DNA from: Stegostoma tigrinum
Lineage: Eukaryota
NCBI RefSeq assembly: GCF_030684315.1
Contig: NC_081396.1
Location: 3,720,001-3,784,000 of the forward strand
Reading direction: 5' to 3'
Length of the DNA: 64,000 nucleotides
This document shows positions 38,971-53,870 of this stretch, one piece after another (within the stretch, counting starts at the first letter, position 1; each line of letters begins with the position of its first letter). The translations under genes and the position numbers were made by a program. Under the pieces are notes generated by a model, which was not told the origin of the DNA, searched no databases, and saw only the letters and a list, made by a program, of their open reading frames with translations.

Positions 38971-40478
38971 TGATAAAAAGATAGGTTGGTGGGGAAAAAA
39001 TAGAGAAAATCGTAAGCAGGAATTCTTTTCTAATTGGAAGGATGAGACAAACTGAATCGGTCTATGTTGGACTCTCATGTATTGGCAATTTAAATAAATG
39101 ACGTTGATGAGAGGTGCGAAGGTACTGTCAACAATAACAAAATGTGCAGCAATGTAAGATATGAACATACCCAGAAGTCGAAAAATGAAGAACAACTGAA
39201 GAATGCAAAGTTTCAGAAGAATTTAACTGTTTCACGTGCACACATCATAAACAGTCAGTATTCAGTCACAGATCATTATCAGGAAGGCAAATGAGATGTG
39301 ACCCTTTGTGGCCAAATGAGTTGAATATAAAGGTAACAATGACGTGATATATTTCGACATGGCATTAATGATATTATGACACCATACCTAAGTGGAGCTT
39401 TCTTCTCAGTTTTCATGAAGGATGTAAGTATAATTGGTCACGGGAGATGTTGACTGAACAAAGTGGAGTGTCGTGTCTGAATAGCTTCGAGTGAAGCTGA
39501 TCACCAGTGAGTGATGACTTGATTTAAGTTTGCACTTTCCAGAATGATCTTGGCAAGGGTTGCACACATATTGCCTTCTTTACCAGTGCACAAATATGAA
39601 CGACTATTTTCAAATTGGCATCTGAAGCGATAGCTGAGAGACAAGGTCGTTGTTCACTTTTGAAACTTTGATTCAGAAGACTGTGGAAGCAGGAACATGA
39701 AATGCTTCAAGAAGTAAATAGATTCTTGATGAGATAGAGATTCATAGATTCGTACAATCATGAAGTATGGGAACAGACACTCTTTTCCAAACAGTTCGTG
39801 TCATAAATAATTCCAAACTGAAGTAAACCCATCTTCCTGCACCTGGATAATATAACTCCGAAACTTTCCTACTCATTTAAACTCATTCACCACTTCACCA
39901 GGAAGTTCATTCCACACGAGAACCACAATCTTTATAAAAAATAACCTCATGTCTTTTTTAAAATCTTTCTCTTCTCACATTTAAAATGTGGCCCATAGTC
40001 TCTAATTTCGCTTCCTTTGGGAGAAGCGAACTACCAATGATTCTACCTGTGCCTTTTGTTATTTTATGAACTTCGACCACGACACCTTTCAACCTCCTGC
40101 GCTTCAATGAAATAAAGGTCGCAGCCTATCCAGTCTTTCCTAGTAGCTCAAGCCTTCCATCCCCGGCAACCTCCTGGCTAATCTCTTCTGAACCCTCTCA
40201 AGGTCAAGAACATCCTCCTACAGCTGGCTGACCAGTACTGGAGAACCTATGCCAGAAGAGGTTTCATCGATCTCCTGTCCAACATCACAAACGCGCCAAA
40301 CCTTATGCTCAAAGGACGAAGCAATGAAGACAAGCTTGCAAAACACCATTTCAATCATTCTGTGTTCATATGAGGCTCACTTTCAAGAATTACGTGCCGA
40401 GTAGCGAGTTTTGAAAGATTTGTGGCTCAGTTTGAGTTTCTGGATGTGAGCTTGCTCGCTGAGCTGGAAGATTAGTTT

Positions 40479-40518
40479 TTAGACGTTTCATCACCATTCT
40501 TGGTAGCATCATTAGTGA
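40479..40518 (-). ncRNA. Minimal hammerhead ribozyme, mutated core (CUAAUGA)
   Basis: Reverse complement tca-CTAATGA-t-gctacc-aagaat-ggtgat-GAAAC-GTC-taa. Confidence 0.7.
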
Positions 40519-40839
40519 GGCTCTGATGAAGCGCTGGTGTTATGTCCCGCTTTCTATTTTTCTGATTAGGTTGCCTTGGGTTGGTGATGTCATTTCCTGC
40601 GTTGGTGATGTCATTTCCTGTTCTTTTTCTCAAACAGAGACACACACGAGAATTCCTGCAAGCATGGCATTCCAACCGGAACTCCATCAACAAACAAATT
40701 GATTTGGAGCCAATCTACCATCATCTGAGAAAATGAACAAGAAATGACATCACCAACGCAGGAAATGACATCACCAACCCAAGGAAACCTAAACAGACCA
40801 ACAGAAAGCGGGACAGAACACGAGCGCTTCATCGGAGGC

Positions 40840-40879
40840 TCACTGATGATGTTAACTAGAATAGTGACGACACGTCTGA
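40840..40879 (+). ncRNA. Minimal hammerhead ribozyme, mutated core (GACAC)
   Basis: tca-CTGATGA-t-gttaac-tagaat-agtgac-GACAC-GTC-tga; stem I is tca/tga. Confidence 0.7.
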
Positions 40880-41899
40880 AAACTAATCTTCCAGCTCAGC
40901 GAGCAGTCTCACATCCAATTACGTGCCTCGTCCCCAAGATTGCTCCCCTAGACTGCTTTGCCATTAATTGGTGTCTGCTCTATCCTTCTTATTTGGAACA
41001 AACTGCCATGCCTCACATTAATCCAAACTGAACTCGTGGTTCCATTTTCACCCAATTAACCATTTGATCAAGACCCCTTTGTAATATTAGAAAACCTTCT
41101 TCACTGTCTACAAAACGGACAAATATGATGTCGTCCACCAACTTAATAACTATACTTGTTATCTTTCTCAGTAAAAAAAATCACACAAATGACAACCAAA
41201 AGAGGACCCAGAAGCAATCGCTGTGGAAAACCGCTGGTCGCAGTCTCCGTTCAGAAATGCAACGTCTCCCATTTTTTCTATCTCTGTTTAACCGTTCCCT
41301 GATGGTATCGCGAACTCAATAGCTGTGAAACACGACTAGGGTACAAAGAAGAATAAAGAACCAGTTAATTGAATGTAGACATAAATGCAAGGGTTAGATA
41401 ATAGAAGAACAGTGAGATAAATTGCACTGATCAACTGTGATCCCTCATGCCAGTAACATGCTCGGTATGAGCCTTGTGTTGCACACTACTTTTGTTCCAA
41501 ATTTTAAATGTCTCTCTTGCAGTTGGTCTATTGTTTAAGGTACGGCAGGGGAGGTGCTGTGACGTGTTGGTCATTTCCATGCTTGTTAGTAATTGCTGTC
41601 CATGAATTTATCTGGTCAATCAATAATTGATTCTACTAATGATGACGGCCATATTGTGTAGAAATAGACAAATAACATTCAGTGACAGCTCGTACCATTA
41701 GTTGATGTAGAAAATAAAATGTCATTCACTCTTCAAAGTAGGCATTGTCGAGGTGGCACTGTCAGCGCTCATGCAAATTTAAACACTCGTATTAAGGATT
41801 TAACTCTTATCCACATTTTCAATTAATTATCGTCGACTGGCAATGACGGTATTCCATTTCACGGTGTCTCAAATACAGCACAGCACTGACTGGTCTCGC

Positions 41900-42763: not shown

Positions 42764-43028
42764 TGAGATGTCGTTGGGATAACAACGCATTGATTTCTAT
42801 ATTCTTGAGAAATCAATTGTTTTTATCTACTGACACAGGGATACACGGACATTGCCTTAAAACTTCCTTCTCGACTAGATTTAAGTGTGAAACTTTGTAA
42901 ATCCTTATTTTCCAACACATAATTAGAAAGACACTGCCTCGAGATTCCTGCCTGAATAGAATTAGGTATAAGCTTTGTTCGTCTTTATCTTTCCGCACTT
43001 CGGTATGTGGAAACTGTCTCAAGTAAGA
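42764..43028 (+). repeat. ERV 5' LTR, truncated (U3 start only)
   Basis: Matches 50376-50640; the rest of the LTR and the PBS are missing; splice donor cagGTAAGT near 43115. Confidence 0.9.
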
Positions 43029-43412: not shown

Positions 43413-45534
43413 ATGGGACAAATGTTAGATTAGTCGGGTGTCGGAACCCCTTTTCATCGGTTTTACCAGGATGACCTCGAAGAGGATATACAGTACCGAA
43501 GTCTGTTGGAATGCCAAAACAAAAAAAAAGGAAAATGAGAATCGCCATTAGGTGGAACGTGGGATATTGATCTATGTGCTAAAGTACTCGAGGCAATATC
43601 GACACGTAATGCGGGAAGTAAATGGAAACGGTTGATATCATCCCGGAAAAAAAAGAGAGCTGAAGAGCTGAATGAAACATCAAAAATGGCTAGTTGGGTG
43701 GAAAATGCACGGAGGAAAGGGATTAGTGCATGTGATAGTCAGGGAAAACCTAAACCTTGGGAGATTTTAACGCCGCAGTGTGAGGGTCATGAAATGAATG
43801 AACATGGAAGAGTGAAACAAGAAAGGCTGGAAAGGGAACGTTGGGTCAAAAAACGGGGATGAGAACTGCTGACAGAAGATAAAAAAATCGGAGGTAACTC
43901 CTGACATACCTGGCATGCCAATGTTTCTCAAAAAATAATGACACAGGTAAGCAAGATGAGGAGAACTGGGGAAGGCACCCCTTGTCCCATCGGGACTACG
44001 AACCCCTCCACAACTCGAACCATCCTTGATCAACCTACATCTGCAGGCGCCCCAATACTGCCATCAGTCTCAGGAATCGCCCGGAGCCCTATTACTGCTA
44101 TTGCACGCTGACCACAAGAAACCTCCTACTACAGAATTCCCAAGTACTTCAGAAATCAGTCCACGTGAACCTTCTGACAAACCCATGGCTTGGACAGGCT
44201 CTATTTCCTGTCATTGTACATATGAGCCTAAACAGACAATCAGGAAACAAAATACGGAACAGACCACAAGTGGACAAAAGGAGCGGGGTGCATCACTCTT
44301 TTAAAACCCACAGGGGATGCCTGAAAAAAATGTCAGCCCCGCATGCAGTTTCCTCAGCCCACGAGTTCCTGTCTTGTGTCACCTCGCGATGCTGCGAGTG
44401 GTGATAAGTATGTTAGTTCCGATTCAAGGGCTGATGATCATGAACCTGAGGACAGTGCTTGGGAGAGACCCTCGGACACCCCTCCCCGAAAGAAAGACCC
44501 CCATAAAAGAAATCCACAATCTCTGAATCGTACGATCCCTCACCTGAGCCCAACACAGGGGGATCAAAATACTATGCAGACCGACACTCCTTGGAAGCTG
44601 CAGGAGATGTGTTTAATTATGCTAAGAGCCACTAATAGAAAGACTAATCCTGACGACTTCACAGGCTATGTCCTGAGCAGTATTCATATGCACCAAGGCA
44701 CCCCGCAAGCCCTCTTTAGACTGCGCTGTATGGCTCTTACCCTCAGTGAATTTTCTCTGTGGAAAATCCCCCTGGGAGACCCAGCTCCCCAAGACTGGAA
44801 TGCTTTTATAGGTCTTGTAGCTAAAGGTCTTAAGCTACTAACCATTAAAGATCCCCTCAAGCGAGCATTGCAGCAACCAGTAGATATTCCCAGAGTGTCA
44901 GAGTGCAAATCCAAACGCGGGGAATGAGTTCTGGGAATGTTTCTTTTCCACATATGCCACCTACTCTGGTAATACTGCCTACTTTGCAGGGAATCCCTCA
45001 CCACAGTTCAATGCTCTTTTGCTGCAGTGTATATCTGAGGCTGTGGCGGTGGCTATTCGTACCAATAACATGGATTGGCCAGATAATAACCGTCCTCAAG
45101 TGGGAAGGGCCTTAACTTAATACCGGAAGGAATCCTTACTGACAAGAGTCACATATGACATGGTGTAGCATCACCTGTGCCAAGCCAGGTCCAGAAAACC
45201 AGCTCATCCAGCATTGGGCTTCCAATTAGTGAGGGCATTTCACACAGAATCCCAATACTAATTTCCTGGCTGCATCGACAATCATGGCAACGGTTTTGTC
45301 ACTCACCCACACGGTCCTAATGCTCTTCACTATGGAGCACCATATGCACCCGCTCCACCATTCCGGAGACCCAGTGCCGCTTTGCCGCGAGGCGCAACAC
45401 CACACTCTACTGACGGATGTTTTAACTGTGGCAGTTGGGATCAGTGGATGAGGACTTGTGCTCAGAATCAAGGTCAAGGGAGAACACAAGGAAGAAGGCA
45501 ACCCTTTTCCACGAATAATCCTTTTTCAGCCTGA
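43413..45534 (+). pseudogene. gag: ERV gag
   Basis: MGQ start, LGGTWDIDLC matrix motif, capsid remnants (ORF 44343..44927), single knuckle CFNCGSWDQWMRTC at 45418-45459, NPFSA-TGA end. Confidence 0.85.
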
Positions 45535-45537
45535 TGA

Positions 45538-48500
45538 TCTTCACCCCATAATCTGCACATTTTAAAGAGAGATCCGGAGGATCAACCTATTGTTAATCTA
45601 ACTGCACAAAGGGTAGCAAGTTCTTTTGTGATTGTTCCTGGGGCCAAGACCCATGCTATGTTGGATGCATCATGTGTACAGCAATATGGGTTTACACTCT
45701 CACCCGTCTCAGTAAGCCTTAATGGACAGACTGGACAGGCAAATGCATACTCTTTAACAGAACCATTGGCAGTTCAATTTGGCCCTGAAAACTGTATTAC
45801 TTATTTTGCCCAGACCATCACTTTGGGAGTTAATTTAGCTGGGACAGATTTGTTGTGCCTTCTTCAAACTGAAATTCTGTGTCTCAACAAGGGCGTTAGT
45901 GTCAAAAGTGACCCGATTATGCGACATTTTTGGGTCCATCGATCGCCACAATGATGGAGAATTGACCTCTCTCTAAGAGATATCACCCTTTTCCTCCAAA
46001 TCCCTCGTCCTCAAGTTGACTTGTGTTATGGCCCTACAGGGACTTCCTGTTAATTGGCTGGTATTTACCCCCTATCTCGGATCAAGTTTATCTGTCACTA
46101 TTGTCGGGTATATGGAGGGTAAGGAAGAATCAGCGTTTCTGGCGGAGTGCCACCCCATCTATGCCATGAATCGTTCCTGGTATTCCCTTACTTCACACTG
46201 GCTGTGAGCACCGGCTACAATGTCAAGTCCTTGGGATTTCTAGTGCACCTCTTGATCCCACAATCATACGTGGAAGTGAAGGGTTATTCAGCGCAGGTGG
46301 CTGATGGTCTCATTACATATTATAGTGATCATTTTCTTGTCTTTGGGCCATTACGTCGCCACCATGCTCATCATAGTGCCTCTAAGGAGTCTTCTCCAGA
46401 CCTGTGGTCTACTTCCACACCTGAGGTAGGATACACTCCGGTCACCATCGTAGGAGTGCGCTTACCCTCAATACCTCAGTACCCCGTCAAACCTGAGACA
46501 GCGGAAGGAATAACCTCCCTGATCAAGTCGTCCCTCCAACCAGGTATATTGTTCCCTTGTCAATTGCCTTGCAATACTCCTATTCTGCCCCTCCCTAAAC
46601 CCGGTCGCCAGGAATGGCGACTGGTCCAGGACCTCAGACAAATAAATAAGATAGTGCGACCCTGACATCCGATTGCCCCTAATCCTGCCACTATGCTTAG
46701 CAACATCCCCTCAGATGCGTGTGTCATCACCGTTTTGGACTTGCAACATGCATTTTTCATGATTCCCTTGCATCAGGGGTCTTAATATCGGTTTGTCTTT
46801 TACTTTAAAGGACAGCAGGAGACCTGGACTTGTCTCCCCCAAAAGTTCATTCACTCGCCTGCCCTAGTTTCCCAGGTCTGGCATCGCCAGCTCTAAGATC
46901 TCCGACTCTTGGATGGCTCCACTGTTATCCAATATGTTCACGATTTGCTCTCAGCAAGCCCATCATAATCCAATAATGTTTTGGATACAAACAGCCTTTT
47001 GAACGCTCTTCAAACTTGGGCATGTCTTATGACCACTGTGAAGGTTACGTGTAATCAACAGCAGGGGCCGTTCCCAGGAATTCTGCTCAGCGCCTGGGAA
47101 CAAACGCTCACCCCTCAGCGCATTGCTCTTATTCAGATGAACCACGCCCATAACCCCAAAACAAGTAAGGGCCTTTTTCGGCTTGGTAAATTATTGTTGA
47201 CAGTGGTTCCCTACTGTCCCTTTGCTTTAAAATAAAACTACCGACCCCTTTAGCTTCTTGTAAAAACCCAAAAAACCTTCACTCTCTCTGACAAACAACA
47301 GTCAGCCTTTGCAGACTTAAAAGCAGACCTTGCGGCTGCCCCGGCTTTGAGAAGACCTTTACATGACAGACCTTTCCGGCTATATGTTAATGTTGTGTAT
47401 GGGTGCACCACTGGGCTCTTGACACAGACTCGGGGCATGGGCAAACAACCGGCCAACGACGATTGTACCTGCCTGGACTCTGTCGCACATGGGCGTACAC
47501 CTTTGTTCCAAGATTCTTCTTGCAATTTATTCTTCAGCCACTGCAGCCTCTAAAGTTACTCTCCACCAGCCACTTACTGCCGAAAACTCACATGCCATTG
47601 ACGTCATCCTCTCCTCCCACCAGACTCAACATCTTACCCAGGCACATTTTAGCTGCTACGAAGTCGCACTCCTTAACAATCCGCTCGTAACATTCTCTTT
47701 CTGCTTCACAAATAACCCAGCCACGTTTTTGAGCACCAAACTCCGATGAGTATTTAGCACACCTGCATGACTGCTTACGAAGGAACCAATTTCTAACATT
47801 TCTGCGCCTGTACCTGATTGATGTCACGGATCCTTCTCCGGATGTTATCCTGTTTGTTGATGGCAGTTCCTCCAAGTTCCCCTTGGGTAACACTCTGAAT
47901 ATCTCATTGTCGATGTTGCCTCAGATTAGAATCAATGGTGTTTGAGCCCCCAGTGTCCGCTCAGAAAGCAGAACGTTTTGTCCTTACTCTGCTTGCATCC
48001 TAGCAACAGGGAAGTCAGCGAATATTTACACAAACTCTCCGTATGCCTTCAGAGTCACCCACAACTTTGGCCAGTTATGGTGTCAGGATGGGTTTTTAAC
48101 ATCTTCAGGTTCACCCTTCCAACATTCCTCGTTTGTTAAAAACCCTCTCCAGACAATCCTCTTCCCTAACCAAGTGGTTTTTATCAAATGCGTTGCCCAT
48201 GCCTCCGACGAATCCGGAGTTACTCAGGGCAACAGTCGGGGTGATCAGGCGGCCAAACAGGCAACTGCAGATCAAACTTTTATTGTGCCATGTACGAACA
48301 AGCAGGTGGGAAATCCAATGCCTCATTCGGACTAGATGGGCATACCAGAAATAGTCACTGTTCAGCACCTACAGGGCGATGTCCCTGCTTCTGAAAAGGA
48401 CATTCGGACGGTGCATGGATGTTCGTATTCTGCATCGTCAGGCCTTTGGATTACCCTCGTCGGCCAAATGTGTATACCTGTTGCTTTGTTACCAATGCTT

Positions 48501-49505
48501 GTTGACTGTCTGCATTCTGACACCTACTTTGGCAAAGAGGCAATGAGTGGTATTATGCTCCGTACCTTGTGGCACACCCGACTGGCTGAGGCACCCGCCC
48601 CCTGGCCCAGTCTCAAAGACCATCATTTCTCACATGCAAGCAAAACAATTTTGGTCTGGGGGAGACGTGCTCACCAGGAAAAAAAATCAAGTGGACCGTT
48701 TGAATGCATTTAACTGGATTTGATTGAATTACCTCGTGTAATTAGTTGTCAGTATTGTCTTGTCATTGCACATTCATTCAGTAGGTGGAGAGAAGCTTTC
48801 ACACTGACACAAAACAAAGCCTCAACAGTAGTGAAGTTATTATTAATTGAAATAATGCCAAGGTTAGGAGTGACTCGACAATTTAGTTCTGTCAATGGCA
48901 TCACTTTGTAGGAAAGATTAATAAGGAACTGTGTGATACGTTATGCATCCAGCAGCAATTGCAACGTTCATACCAACCCTCAGTGTCAGGGATAGTGGAA
49001 AAAGAGAATGGAACGCTCAAAGCGAAATTGACCAAGTTGATATCAGAGACTGGCCTTAGCTAGTTAAAGGTTTTGCCGCCAGCTTTGTACCACACGCGAA
49101 GAACACCCTATTCTAAGACTGGACTCACAGCAACAGAAATCGCCTATGGCTGACCCAGCAAAACACCCTGGGATGCCAATACCAGCCCACCCACCCAAAT
49201 TGACTTGAATGTTGTGGGAGAGGAAATGCAAAGTTATTTTCTGCAGCCAACATCGTCTCCAAAGTTTCTCCATTCACTGGTGAAGCTGGTGAAGTGTACC
49301 ATTGGAACACCGTTGCAGGCACTAGACCAAGACCTGAAGACTAGAATCGCTCTTCATGATGACAGATTGGAGATTTCGTACTTGTCCGAGATTGGGATCA
49401 CCCAAATCTTGGGTGGAGGTGGAACGGGCCATTCTTAAAACTCCAACAGCTCTATAAGTTAAAAGACAGAATCACTGGATCCACCTCAGTAACTGCAAAC
49501 GACAG
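45538..49505 (+). pseudogene. pol: ERV pro-pol (PR, 2H-like insert, RT, RNase H, integrase)
   Basis: IVPGA (decayed DTGA); QYP, CNTPILP, WRLVQDLR, LDLQHAFF, QYVHDLL (YVHD at 46933-44); LFVDGSS; FSRWREAF, EIMPRLG; WIHLSNCK. Confidence 0.95.
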
Positions 49506-49533
49506 ATTCCCTCTTCCCCTTGCAATTCACCAT

Positions 49534-50340
49534 TTGAATGAGGATTATTCTGACAGTGCATGTCCAGCAAACAATCTGTTGCACAGAACACACGTCCAAC
49601 TGCACGGGAATCAGACAACATGTTACCTGCTACCAGGCAAGAAGGGATTCGTTTTCCTTCTTAATGAGACCTTCACGATTGCCACTAAAATTTTGCTGGT
49701 GCTGTTTGCTGTTGGGGCCATTGGTCGCCTCATGGTCTCTTGTCCCCAATGAGCGTGGATTCAATGGCGAATTGCCACACGCTTCCTGAGCCTGTAGTTT
49801 TGCGATGCATGGCAGGATCCAATTGCCTTGGGCTCTTCCTTGTGTTATGGCTTCCTTGGAACTGTTAGCTTGGGAGGATCCCCGCGGTGGAGTCCGTAAG
49901 TAAACCGAAATTACCTGAGATGTAGACTCACCACCCTGGGAAACAGCACAATGAAAGCATTGGAGGCAGTCAACCGAGAATTTGCCAAACTTCATCTCTG
50001 TGCTCATTCAACCCGGTATGCAATGGACCATCAACTGGCTCAGCAAGGTGGAGAATGTATTATCATGGAGGACAAGTACATGACCAAGTTACAGATGAGT
50101 CCTATAGTATTACCCAGGATATGCAAGCCATACAATGGCACTTGGAACAGTAGAGAGAGGGGCCCTGACCGGGGCAGGGTGGCTCTTTAGCATGGTTTAT
50201 GGGCGGGTCTTGGGTCTCATACCTGCTACATGAGCTAGTTATTCTACAAGTTGTCATAGCGTTTGCTGTGTGTTTATTGTGTGCCTGAAATCTTGATTCA
50301 GGCATGCGTTTGCCAGATCAGCAGCTCCCTTCTTGTCCCT
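49534..50340 (+). pseudogene. env: ERV env, internally deleted
   Basis: TRYAMDHQLAQQGGECII resembles the immunosuppressive domain; hydrophobic anchor LVILQVVIAFAVCLL. Confidence 0.8.
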
Positions 50341-50375
50341 GACATATGTTAACATGAAATAATAAACGGAGGGAA

Positions 50376-51167
50376 TGAGATGTTGTTGGGACAACATCCC
50401 ATTGATTTCCACATTCTAGAGAAGTAAATGCTCTTTACCTGCTTACCCAGAAGTATGTGGACAATGCCTTCAAACTTCCTGCCCGACTAGAATTAGGTGT
50501 AAAACTTTGTAAATTCCAATCTTCCTACACATAGGTGGAAAGACACTACCTTAAGCTTCCTGCCTCAATAGAATTATGTACTAACTTTGCCAGACTTTAT
50601 CTTCCTGCGCAGGGGTATGTGGAAACTGTCTCAAATAAGTTGAGGTGTGTAGTGTTTGTAAACGCGTGAGACTTCTGAAATCCTGTAAAGAATGTAACTT
50701 CTGTTTCTGCTAAATGGGCCAGGGCACTGAATATTTTTTTTTTCAAGCCAGACACTTTGGCGTCTTGAAGTTACATTCTTTCACTTCAGCTACTTGAAAT
50801 CGTCTCCTGCTCCTAGCAGTCACTTCACGAATGATCGATACTGCATCCTGCTGTCTGCATGTTTTTCATGTTGTAATTGTTTGTGTATCATGTCATTGCC
50901 CGATGTAGAGATTGTTTCATGCAACATGCCATTGTGAGATGTAAAATTGCTTTGTCTGGTATGCACTCGATAAGGTATAAAAATTGGGGACTGCCCACTG
51001 CTCGGAGACAATCGCTTCTGAGACTCTGCACTCTGTGCTAGGTTGAGTACAGTGATCCTCCACAGATTGTACTTGCTTCCTAATACTGGGTTTGTGTTTT
51101 TTTCTGAACAGGTCAGTGTCTTGTTATTGCATCAAGTACGTCAAGGTCTCCAAAAACAAACATATCA
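50376..51167 (+). repeat. ERV 3' LTR (about 790 bp)
   Basis: tgagatgtt...aacatatca terminal inverted repeat; TATAAAAA at 50976. Confidence 0.9.
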
Positions 51168-53399: not shown

Positions 53400-53870
53400 A
53401 AATGAGGCTTCATCTGATCATCCAAACTGCAGGGACACCTGGAAACCAGCAAAATGAAGAAACTGTGGTAATGTAATGATTATGGGAGAGTATTTAATTA
53501 TCCATCCAGGTTACTAAAGGTTGACCACAGACATAAGGAGATCAGCACCACACCATATCCAACGATCTGTGGGCACAGTCAAGAATTCGATTGTCATTCC
53601 TTCCTGGGATATTCACACAGTGAAATGAAGATGAAGTCATTTACTTGCTCTGTGTGTGGGAAGGAATTTATTAAGTCCAGCATCCTGCTGTCATATGTTT
53701 GTTCTCACATTCAAGATTAGCCATTCTGCTGCACTGTCTGTGGAAGGAGGTCCAGGCGTTCATGTGAATTCATTACTGAGCAGCGAATTGGCACTGGAGA
53801 GTGGCCATTCACCTGCTCAGTATGTGAAAGAGATTCGCTCAGTCATCCAATCTGCTGAGGGTCCTCCCTG
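53400..53870 (+). pseudogene. C2H2 zinc-finger pseudogene
   Basis: KSFTCSVCGKEFIKSS.LL...SH.QD*PFCCTVCGRR...TGEWPFTCSVCE. Confidence 0.85.

Follow-up and report, generated by a model that had tools for sequence, protein, structure and literature searches.

A predicted CNPase-type 2H phosphoesterase domain between protease and reverse transcriptase in endogenous retroviruses of the shark Stegostoma tigrinum

The provirus and the insert in its pol region

The window, by which we mean the whole stretch of 64,000 nucleotides analysed here (Stegostoma tigrinum, contig NC_081396.1, positions 3,720,001 to 3,784,000), carries an old and broken endogenous retrovirus (ERV). It is flanked by long terminal repeats (LTRs) and is class I-like as judged from its layout, the order LTR-gag-stop-pro-pol-env with an in-frame stop of the readthrough type being present. 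In a DNA search, the matching of other genomic copies starts at about 42764. The parts of the provirus are as follows:

42764..43027, + strand: remnant of the 5' LTR, 79% over 266 nt against the 3' LTR
45418..45534, + strand: end of gag, with a CCHC zinc knuckle and a single in-frame stop at 45532, in a register common to protease and insert
45538..45930, + strand: aspartic protease (PR), catalytic triad position at 45634-45642, Asp absent in the window copy
45955..46380, + strand: insert between PR and reverse transcriptase (RT), a compact CNPase-type 2H phosphoesterase domain (predicted), broken
46009..46023, + strand: site of the first H-x-T motif, window copy without His and without Thr
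46186..46200, + strand: site of the second H-x-T motif, window copy without His, followed by a predicted helix
46400..47250, + strand: RT, broken (RVT_1, E 7.8e-5 in the window frame with stops read as X)
47254..48335, + strand: RT connection and RNase H (RT_RNaseH_2, E 9e-6; RNase_H, E 7.7e-8)
48336..50190, + strand: integrase and env remnants (weak MLVIN_C, E 0.046; Ebola-like_HR1-HR2, E 0.072)
50364..50639, + strand: polypurine tract and start of the 3' LTR (50376), from the sequence and the repeat with the 5' LTR

The RT motif of the window copy reads Y-V-H-D. An L-D-A-S sequence near 45664 was considered as an odd protease site and rejected; the real triad, at 45634, is ordinary. The start of the LTR (42764-42900) gave 594 first-look candidates in the genome, 40 of them scored, which indicates that the family left far more LTRs than internal regions. 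Elsewhere in the window, an inverted repeat at 40441-40917, with 192-nt arms that are 89% complementary and 93 nt apart, is probably a small DNA element. A short and decayed stretch resembling a C2H2 zinc finger, noted by eye, lies downstream of the provirus at 53472-53720.

A preliminary description of this DNA, made from the letters alone, had reported about 140 extra codons between PR and RT and two peptides about 59 codons apart. The insert indeed spans 143 codon columns, and the peptides at 46009 and 46186 lie in one frame, 177 nt (59 codons) apart. The zinc knuckle, the protease triad and the insert share one register, broken only by the stop at 45532. This stop is present in 22 of 23 copies, and from protease through RT there is no column in which a stop is the commonest codon. 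A single in-frame stop between gag and pol is how class I retroviruses are laid out for readthrough. Since the insert is in frame with Gag and PR behind a single gag stop, it belonged to Gag-Pol, as had been proposed. Given the class I layout, the domain would have been made in Gag-Pol and packaged, although both readthrough at the gag stop and packaging are inferred by analogy with gamma- and epsilon-type retroviruses. The gag stop is TGA in 19 of 23 copies, unlike the amber that serves as gag stop codon of gamma- and epsilonretroviruses.

In the window copy, the insert contains stops at 45952 and 46051. Two frameshifts, one near 46068 and the other near 46146, offset each other, and of the motif residues both His and the first Thr are missing. 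The copy had been described as dead because both His codons are mutated. Both His are indeed absent, but the copy is more broken than this, with the stops, the frameshifts and the loss of the first Thr and of the protease Asp in addition. Together with five others (L002-L006), the window copy lies in a tandem segmental duplication of about 116 kb at 3.41-4.01 Mb of the same contig (G000:C55). The duplicated unit includes host flank that is common to all six at 91-100%, which rules out six independent insertions; the six copies are one insertion, duplicated with its flank. All six lack both motif His, and the protease Asp, present in 22 of 24 dispersed copies, is found in none of them.

In the tree of copies, this group forms a long branch. 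The branch length of the six copies and of the nearby L017 is about twice that of the dispersed copies, which suggests either a fast-mutating region or an older insertion. Relative to the main-subfamily column yardstick, 136 of 527 codon columns differ in the group of the window copy, and the loss of three of the four motif residues then has a P of about 0.055. In addition, PR, insert and RT of the group have similar pN/pS values (0.57, 0.65 and 0.65). On these values, and with the protease Asp lost as well, we reject a targeted inactivation of the domain in the window lineage. On such a long branch, and with the protease Asp lost too, the loss of the His residues is nothing special, and the window copy is an ordinary fossil, generally decayed.

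Conservation of the insert among copies and families

The DNA search of the shark's own genome gave 40 scored matches, the best 30 of which were fetched; without the six duplicates, 24 dispersed copies remain. A protein search of the same genome gave 128 matches, from which 30 loci were fetched and 16 more regions taken. Among the dispersed copies, the His and the Thr of motif 1 are each present in 23 of 24 and those of motif 2 each in 22 of 24. The ancestral paired H-x-T motifs, which had been proposed by undoing small changes in the window copy, are both present in 19 of the 24. The spacing between the two His is 60 codons in 14 of the 18 rows that have both. When one natural copy was shuffled, 1252 of 20000 shuffles (6%) yielded such a motif pair; the pair alone is thus weak evidence, and the case rests on conservation and fold.

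The tree of copies contains a star-like main subfamily and two further subfamilies (B and C) besides the long-branched duplication group. His is kept at both motifs in all subfamilies (22/23 at each motif in the main one, 12/14 and 13/14 in B, 6/6 in C), the outcome of the family check that the preliminary description had called for. We estimated dN/dS by column-by-column counts between the commonest codons of the subfamilies, after removal of 14 repeated loci and three near-identical duplicates, of four long-branch copies and of the six loci of a second ERV family. When the main subfamily is compared with B (23 and 14 copies), the insert has a dN/dS of 0.13 (S 26/97, N 13/302, Fisher p 3.5e-9), with values of 0.16 for PR and 0.05 for RT. 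In the comparison with subfamily C, synonymous sites have reached saturation, and the dN of the insert is 0.19. Individual copies decay alike across PR, insert and RT (pN/pS 0.58, 0.68 and 0.59). The purifying selection observed between subfamilies indicates that the insert was functional while the virus replicated.

The second ERV family (L061-L066, on C34, C19, C14, C22, C10 and C2) is about 34% identical to the first in the insert and keeps both motifs. Its order PR-2H-RT is that of the first family, the loop ahead of motif 1 being shorter, and one natural copy holds PR, insert and RT in a single frame of 421 aa. In a protein collection, the insert alone as query gave no match, a profile query gave one, and a query spanning PR, insert and RT gave six, of which two cover the insert motifs well, two cover them partly and one begins in RT. 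Both motifs are found in a Heptranchias protein; a Mobula protein includes the first of them and a Mustelus protein the C-terminal end of the insert. Of the five protein relatives with a name, four are elasmobranch. In one ERV copy, a long open LINE-type RT frame (L067:1786-3999) is inserted just past the insert.

Predicted fold and relation to known 2H proteins

Two structures were modelled from natural sequences left unchanged: a stretch of L010, folded together with 25 natural rows (model 1, mean pLDDT 53), and a copy of the second family (model 2, mean pLDDT 41). Around motif 2, pLDDT is below 50 in both. In a Foldseek search of the PDB with model 1, CNPase came first (best E 5.3e-4, TMq about 0.58) and CNPase chains held ranks 1-48 among the matches listed, 10 of the 392 matches having E <= 0.001. 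Re-alignment with VIA, which re-scored only these 392 chains from a PDB crowded with CNPase entries, gave Z 10.7 for CNPase (rmsd 3.8, 144 aligned), 10.2 for goldfish RICH, 8.6 for the fungal RNA kinase or tRNA-ligase CPD, 6.2 for rotavirus VP3 (rmsd 4.2, 111 aligned), 4.9 for an Acb1-like phage phosphodiesterase (PDE) and 4.5 for LigT. AKAP7 and ns2 were absent among the 50 VIA rows listed. With model 2, CNPase was again first, at E 0.028, and nothing reached E <= 0.001. In the ESM Atlas, both families led to tRNA_lig_CPD clusters (0.95-0.96), the recognition value of the family-1 query being 2100, below the tool's mark of 2300.

Sequence searches were largely silent. Pfam gave no significant family for the insert, either in the window ORFs or in natural copies; PF05881 matched none of 25 members, and Acb1 matched one of the 25 weakly (E 0.32). 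No PDB chain was matched in sequence searches with the insert. A search of the genome with PF05881 found the host gene only, and the insert profile had no significant match to the host CNPase exon (E 0.18). A recent capture of the host CNP gene was ruled out, as there is no sequence-level match to host CNPase. Two finer features were compared with CNPase. In both models, a helix follows motif 2 at about the offset of CNPase helix alpha7 (residues 102-115 in model 1, with pLDDT below 50), and a Gly at His+15 after motif 2 is found in 21 of 23 rows, at the same spacing as in the host CNPase exon.

The fold is therefore predicted to be 2H, as the preliminary description had anticipated (Foldseek E 5.3e-4 and, over 144 residues, VIA Z 10.7; model confidence low), and, on the chains re-scored, to be nearest to CNPase rather than to the ns2/VP3 type. 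Vertebrate CNPase/RICH (PF05881) and the fungal tRNA-ligase CPD (PF08302), the top structural matches, share with the insert two H-x-T motifs and, as modelled with low confidence, a helix after motif 2 at about the same offset; they differ in showing 10-13% identity to it and no sequence-level match. The insert is also compact, with about 145 aa and 60 residues between the His, as compared with about 210 aa and 79 residues in mouse CNPase (H230, H309). Viral 2',5'-PDEs (rotavirus VP3, coronavirus ns2/NS4b) and Acb1/LigT-like cGAMP PDEs belong to the same superfamily and resemble the insert in compact size and viral context, but have much lower structural scores (Z 6.2 and below; ORF4b E 0.62).

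Among viral folds, model 1 best matched WEHV-1 Q9WHI8 (E 9.8e-7), a further protein, Q2VF30 (E 3.0e-5), and WDSV A4GTG3 (E 1.9e-4), the first and the last being proteins of walleye retroviruses, with TMq of about 0.62 and 14-19% identity for the walleye entries, and weak Acb1 rows (E 0.05) and ORF4b (E 0.62) followed. Q9WHI8 and A4GTG3 are labelled Envelope polyprotein, whereas the shark domain lies between PR and RT in Gag-Pol, in an elasmobranch host. The precedent in fish retroviruses that the preliminary description had mentioned does exist: the available text of PMC9503650, citing Mazumder 2002, places a 2H domain in WDSV and 'the fish retrovirus', and that of PMC4977317, citing Basta 2009, mentions CNPase-like ORFs in epsilon-like teleost ERVs. 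Hence 2H/CNPase domains in fish retroviruses are already published, and they are here extended to elasmobranch Pol. Our literature searches, largely of the main texts of freely accessible papers, brought up neither an assay of a retroviral 2H domain nor a report of one in cartilaginous fish. A term look-up in the accessible text of Han 2015 (shark ERVs), PMC8672886, PMC2684134 and an Anura preprint returned no mention of phosphodiesterase, and in that of PMC11410667 no mention of retroviruses.

Possible activities of the domain

Knowing the fold of a 2H enzyme does not tell its substrate, and several activities are weighed here. In CNPase, according to the accessible part of PMC4643303, one His activates water and the other protonates the 3'-O, which leaves a 2'-phosphate; the same text describes helix alpha7 after motif 2 as unique to CNPase, suggests that it limits substrate size, and contrasts CNPase-type enzymes with plant CPDases acting on cyclic ADPr. 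This mechanism, the helix modelled with low confidence at about the alpha7 offset and the kept Gly at His+15 lead us to favour a 2',3'-cyclic-phosphate hydrolase. Our best explanation, to which we would give about half of our belief, is that the insert is a decayed CNPase-type 2H phosphodiesterase of a readthrough Gag-Pol, likely packaged, that opened 2',3'-cyclic phosphates.

The least probable of the alternatives, which we would set aside almost entirely, is that the insert is no 2H domain but a linker, or has an unrelated fold in which the H-x-T motifs arose by chance. The frequency of motif pairs in shuffles (6%), the low pLDDT and the blank Pfam and PDB sequence searches fit such a reading, but three fold or feature methods and two ERV families converge on 2H proteins, fish retroviral proteins were matched at E 9.8e-7 and 1.9e-4, and the insert was under purifying selection. 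A 2H-fold domain with another role, namely hydrolysis of ADP-ribose-1'',2''-cyclic phosphate or mainly RNA or nucleotide binding as an accessory of RT, seems distinctly unlikely. The available portions of PMC9503650 and PMC4977317 do report that 2H enzymes resolve cyclic ADPr and that macro domains also occur in fish ERVs. Nevertheless, the contrast drawn in PMC4643303, as far as accessible, sets cyclic-ADPr-acting enzymes apart from the CNPase type, and the conservation of four catalytic-type residues between families that share only 34% identity speaks for catalysis rather than binding.

The two remaining readings concern immune signalling and are plausible in so far as the host carries OAS genes and STING. 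The preliminary description preferred an enzyme like ns2 or VP3 that degrades 2-5A or another second messenger, and the structural ranking does not uphold this as the best reading (CNPase 10.7 and CPD 8.6 against 6.2 for VP3): a fold of CNPase rather than ns2/VP3 type weakens the 2-5A case. A 2-5A phosphodiesterase acting against OAS-RNase L is now quite unlikely in our judgement. It would suit the modelled 2H fold, the VP3 PDE as a structural match, and a host OAS cluster with at least four OAS1_C repeats on C34 (15.62-15.73 Mb) and one locus on C3 (87.25 Mb; L077-L080), and the accessible part of PMC6307210 lists elephant shark OAS. Against it, VP3 ranks well below CNPase, and when the genome was searched for the nuclease domain of RNase L and IRE1, RNase L was not found; of 11 candidates two matched, and both look IRE1-like by their motif. 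Moreover, the nearest viral folds come from teleost viruses, and teleosts are not known to have OAS-RNase L. A nuclease of cGAMP, a cyclic dinucleotide, that would blunt cGAS-STING sensing of reverse-transcribed DNA is also unlikely, if less so. The retroviral product seen by such a sensor is DNA. The host genome contains STING, Acb1 was matched weakly among viral folds (E 0.05) and in Pfam (one of 25 members), and viral LigT-like PDEs and Acb1 cleave cGAMP according to the available text of PMC11410667. However, Acb1-like proteins (Z 4.9) and LigT (Z 4.5) score far below CNPase, helix alpha7 is suggested in the accessible part of PMC4643303 to limit substrate size, and Pol is a minor virion protein.

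If the insert was a 2',3'-cyclic-phosphate hydrolase, the active retrovirus would have made the domain within its readthrough Gag-Pol polyprotein and would likely have packaged it. The packaged domain would act on RNA ends or nucleotides that carry a 2',3'-cyclic phosphate and open it, presumably by His-His acid-base hydrolysis of the CNPase kind, which leaves a 2'-phosphate and a free 3'-OH. Its purpose, the most speculative step, might be the healing of RNA ends cut by metal-independent nucleases of the host. This could take place in or near the virion or the reverse-transcription complex, for example at the primer tRNA or at genome ends, and at such a complex a few Pol molecules would suffice.

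Extra enzymes are rare in retroviral Pol. The insert described here was under selection in one family, at least two ERV families of a single genome keep its motifs, and it is seen in shark and ray proteins, all of which indicates that the domain was useful for a long time. Its placement in the CNPase/CPD rather than the ns2/VP3 branch changes which experiment comes first. It is tempting to go further, to an idea that we hold to be improbable as a whole: aquatic class I retroviruses may have carried an old CNPase-type end-healing enzyme in the virion since before the shark-ray split, moved between Pol (at the PR-RT junction) and Env, which would repair cyclic-phosphate RNA ends cut by host nucleases so that reverse transcription can be primed. 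If true, this would be a retroviral counter-defence by RNA repair, similar to that of phages, against some antiviral nuclease of fish. In any case, the substrate of the domain would point to the antiviral pathway met by fish retroviruses.
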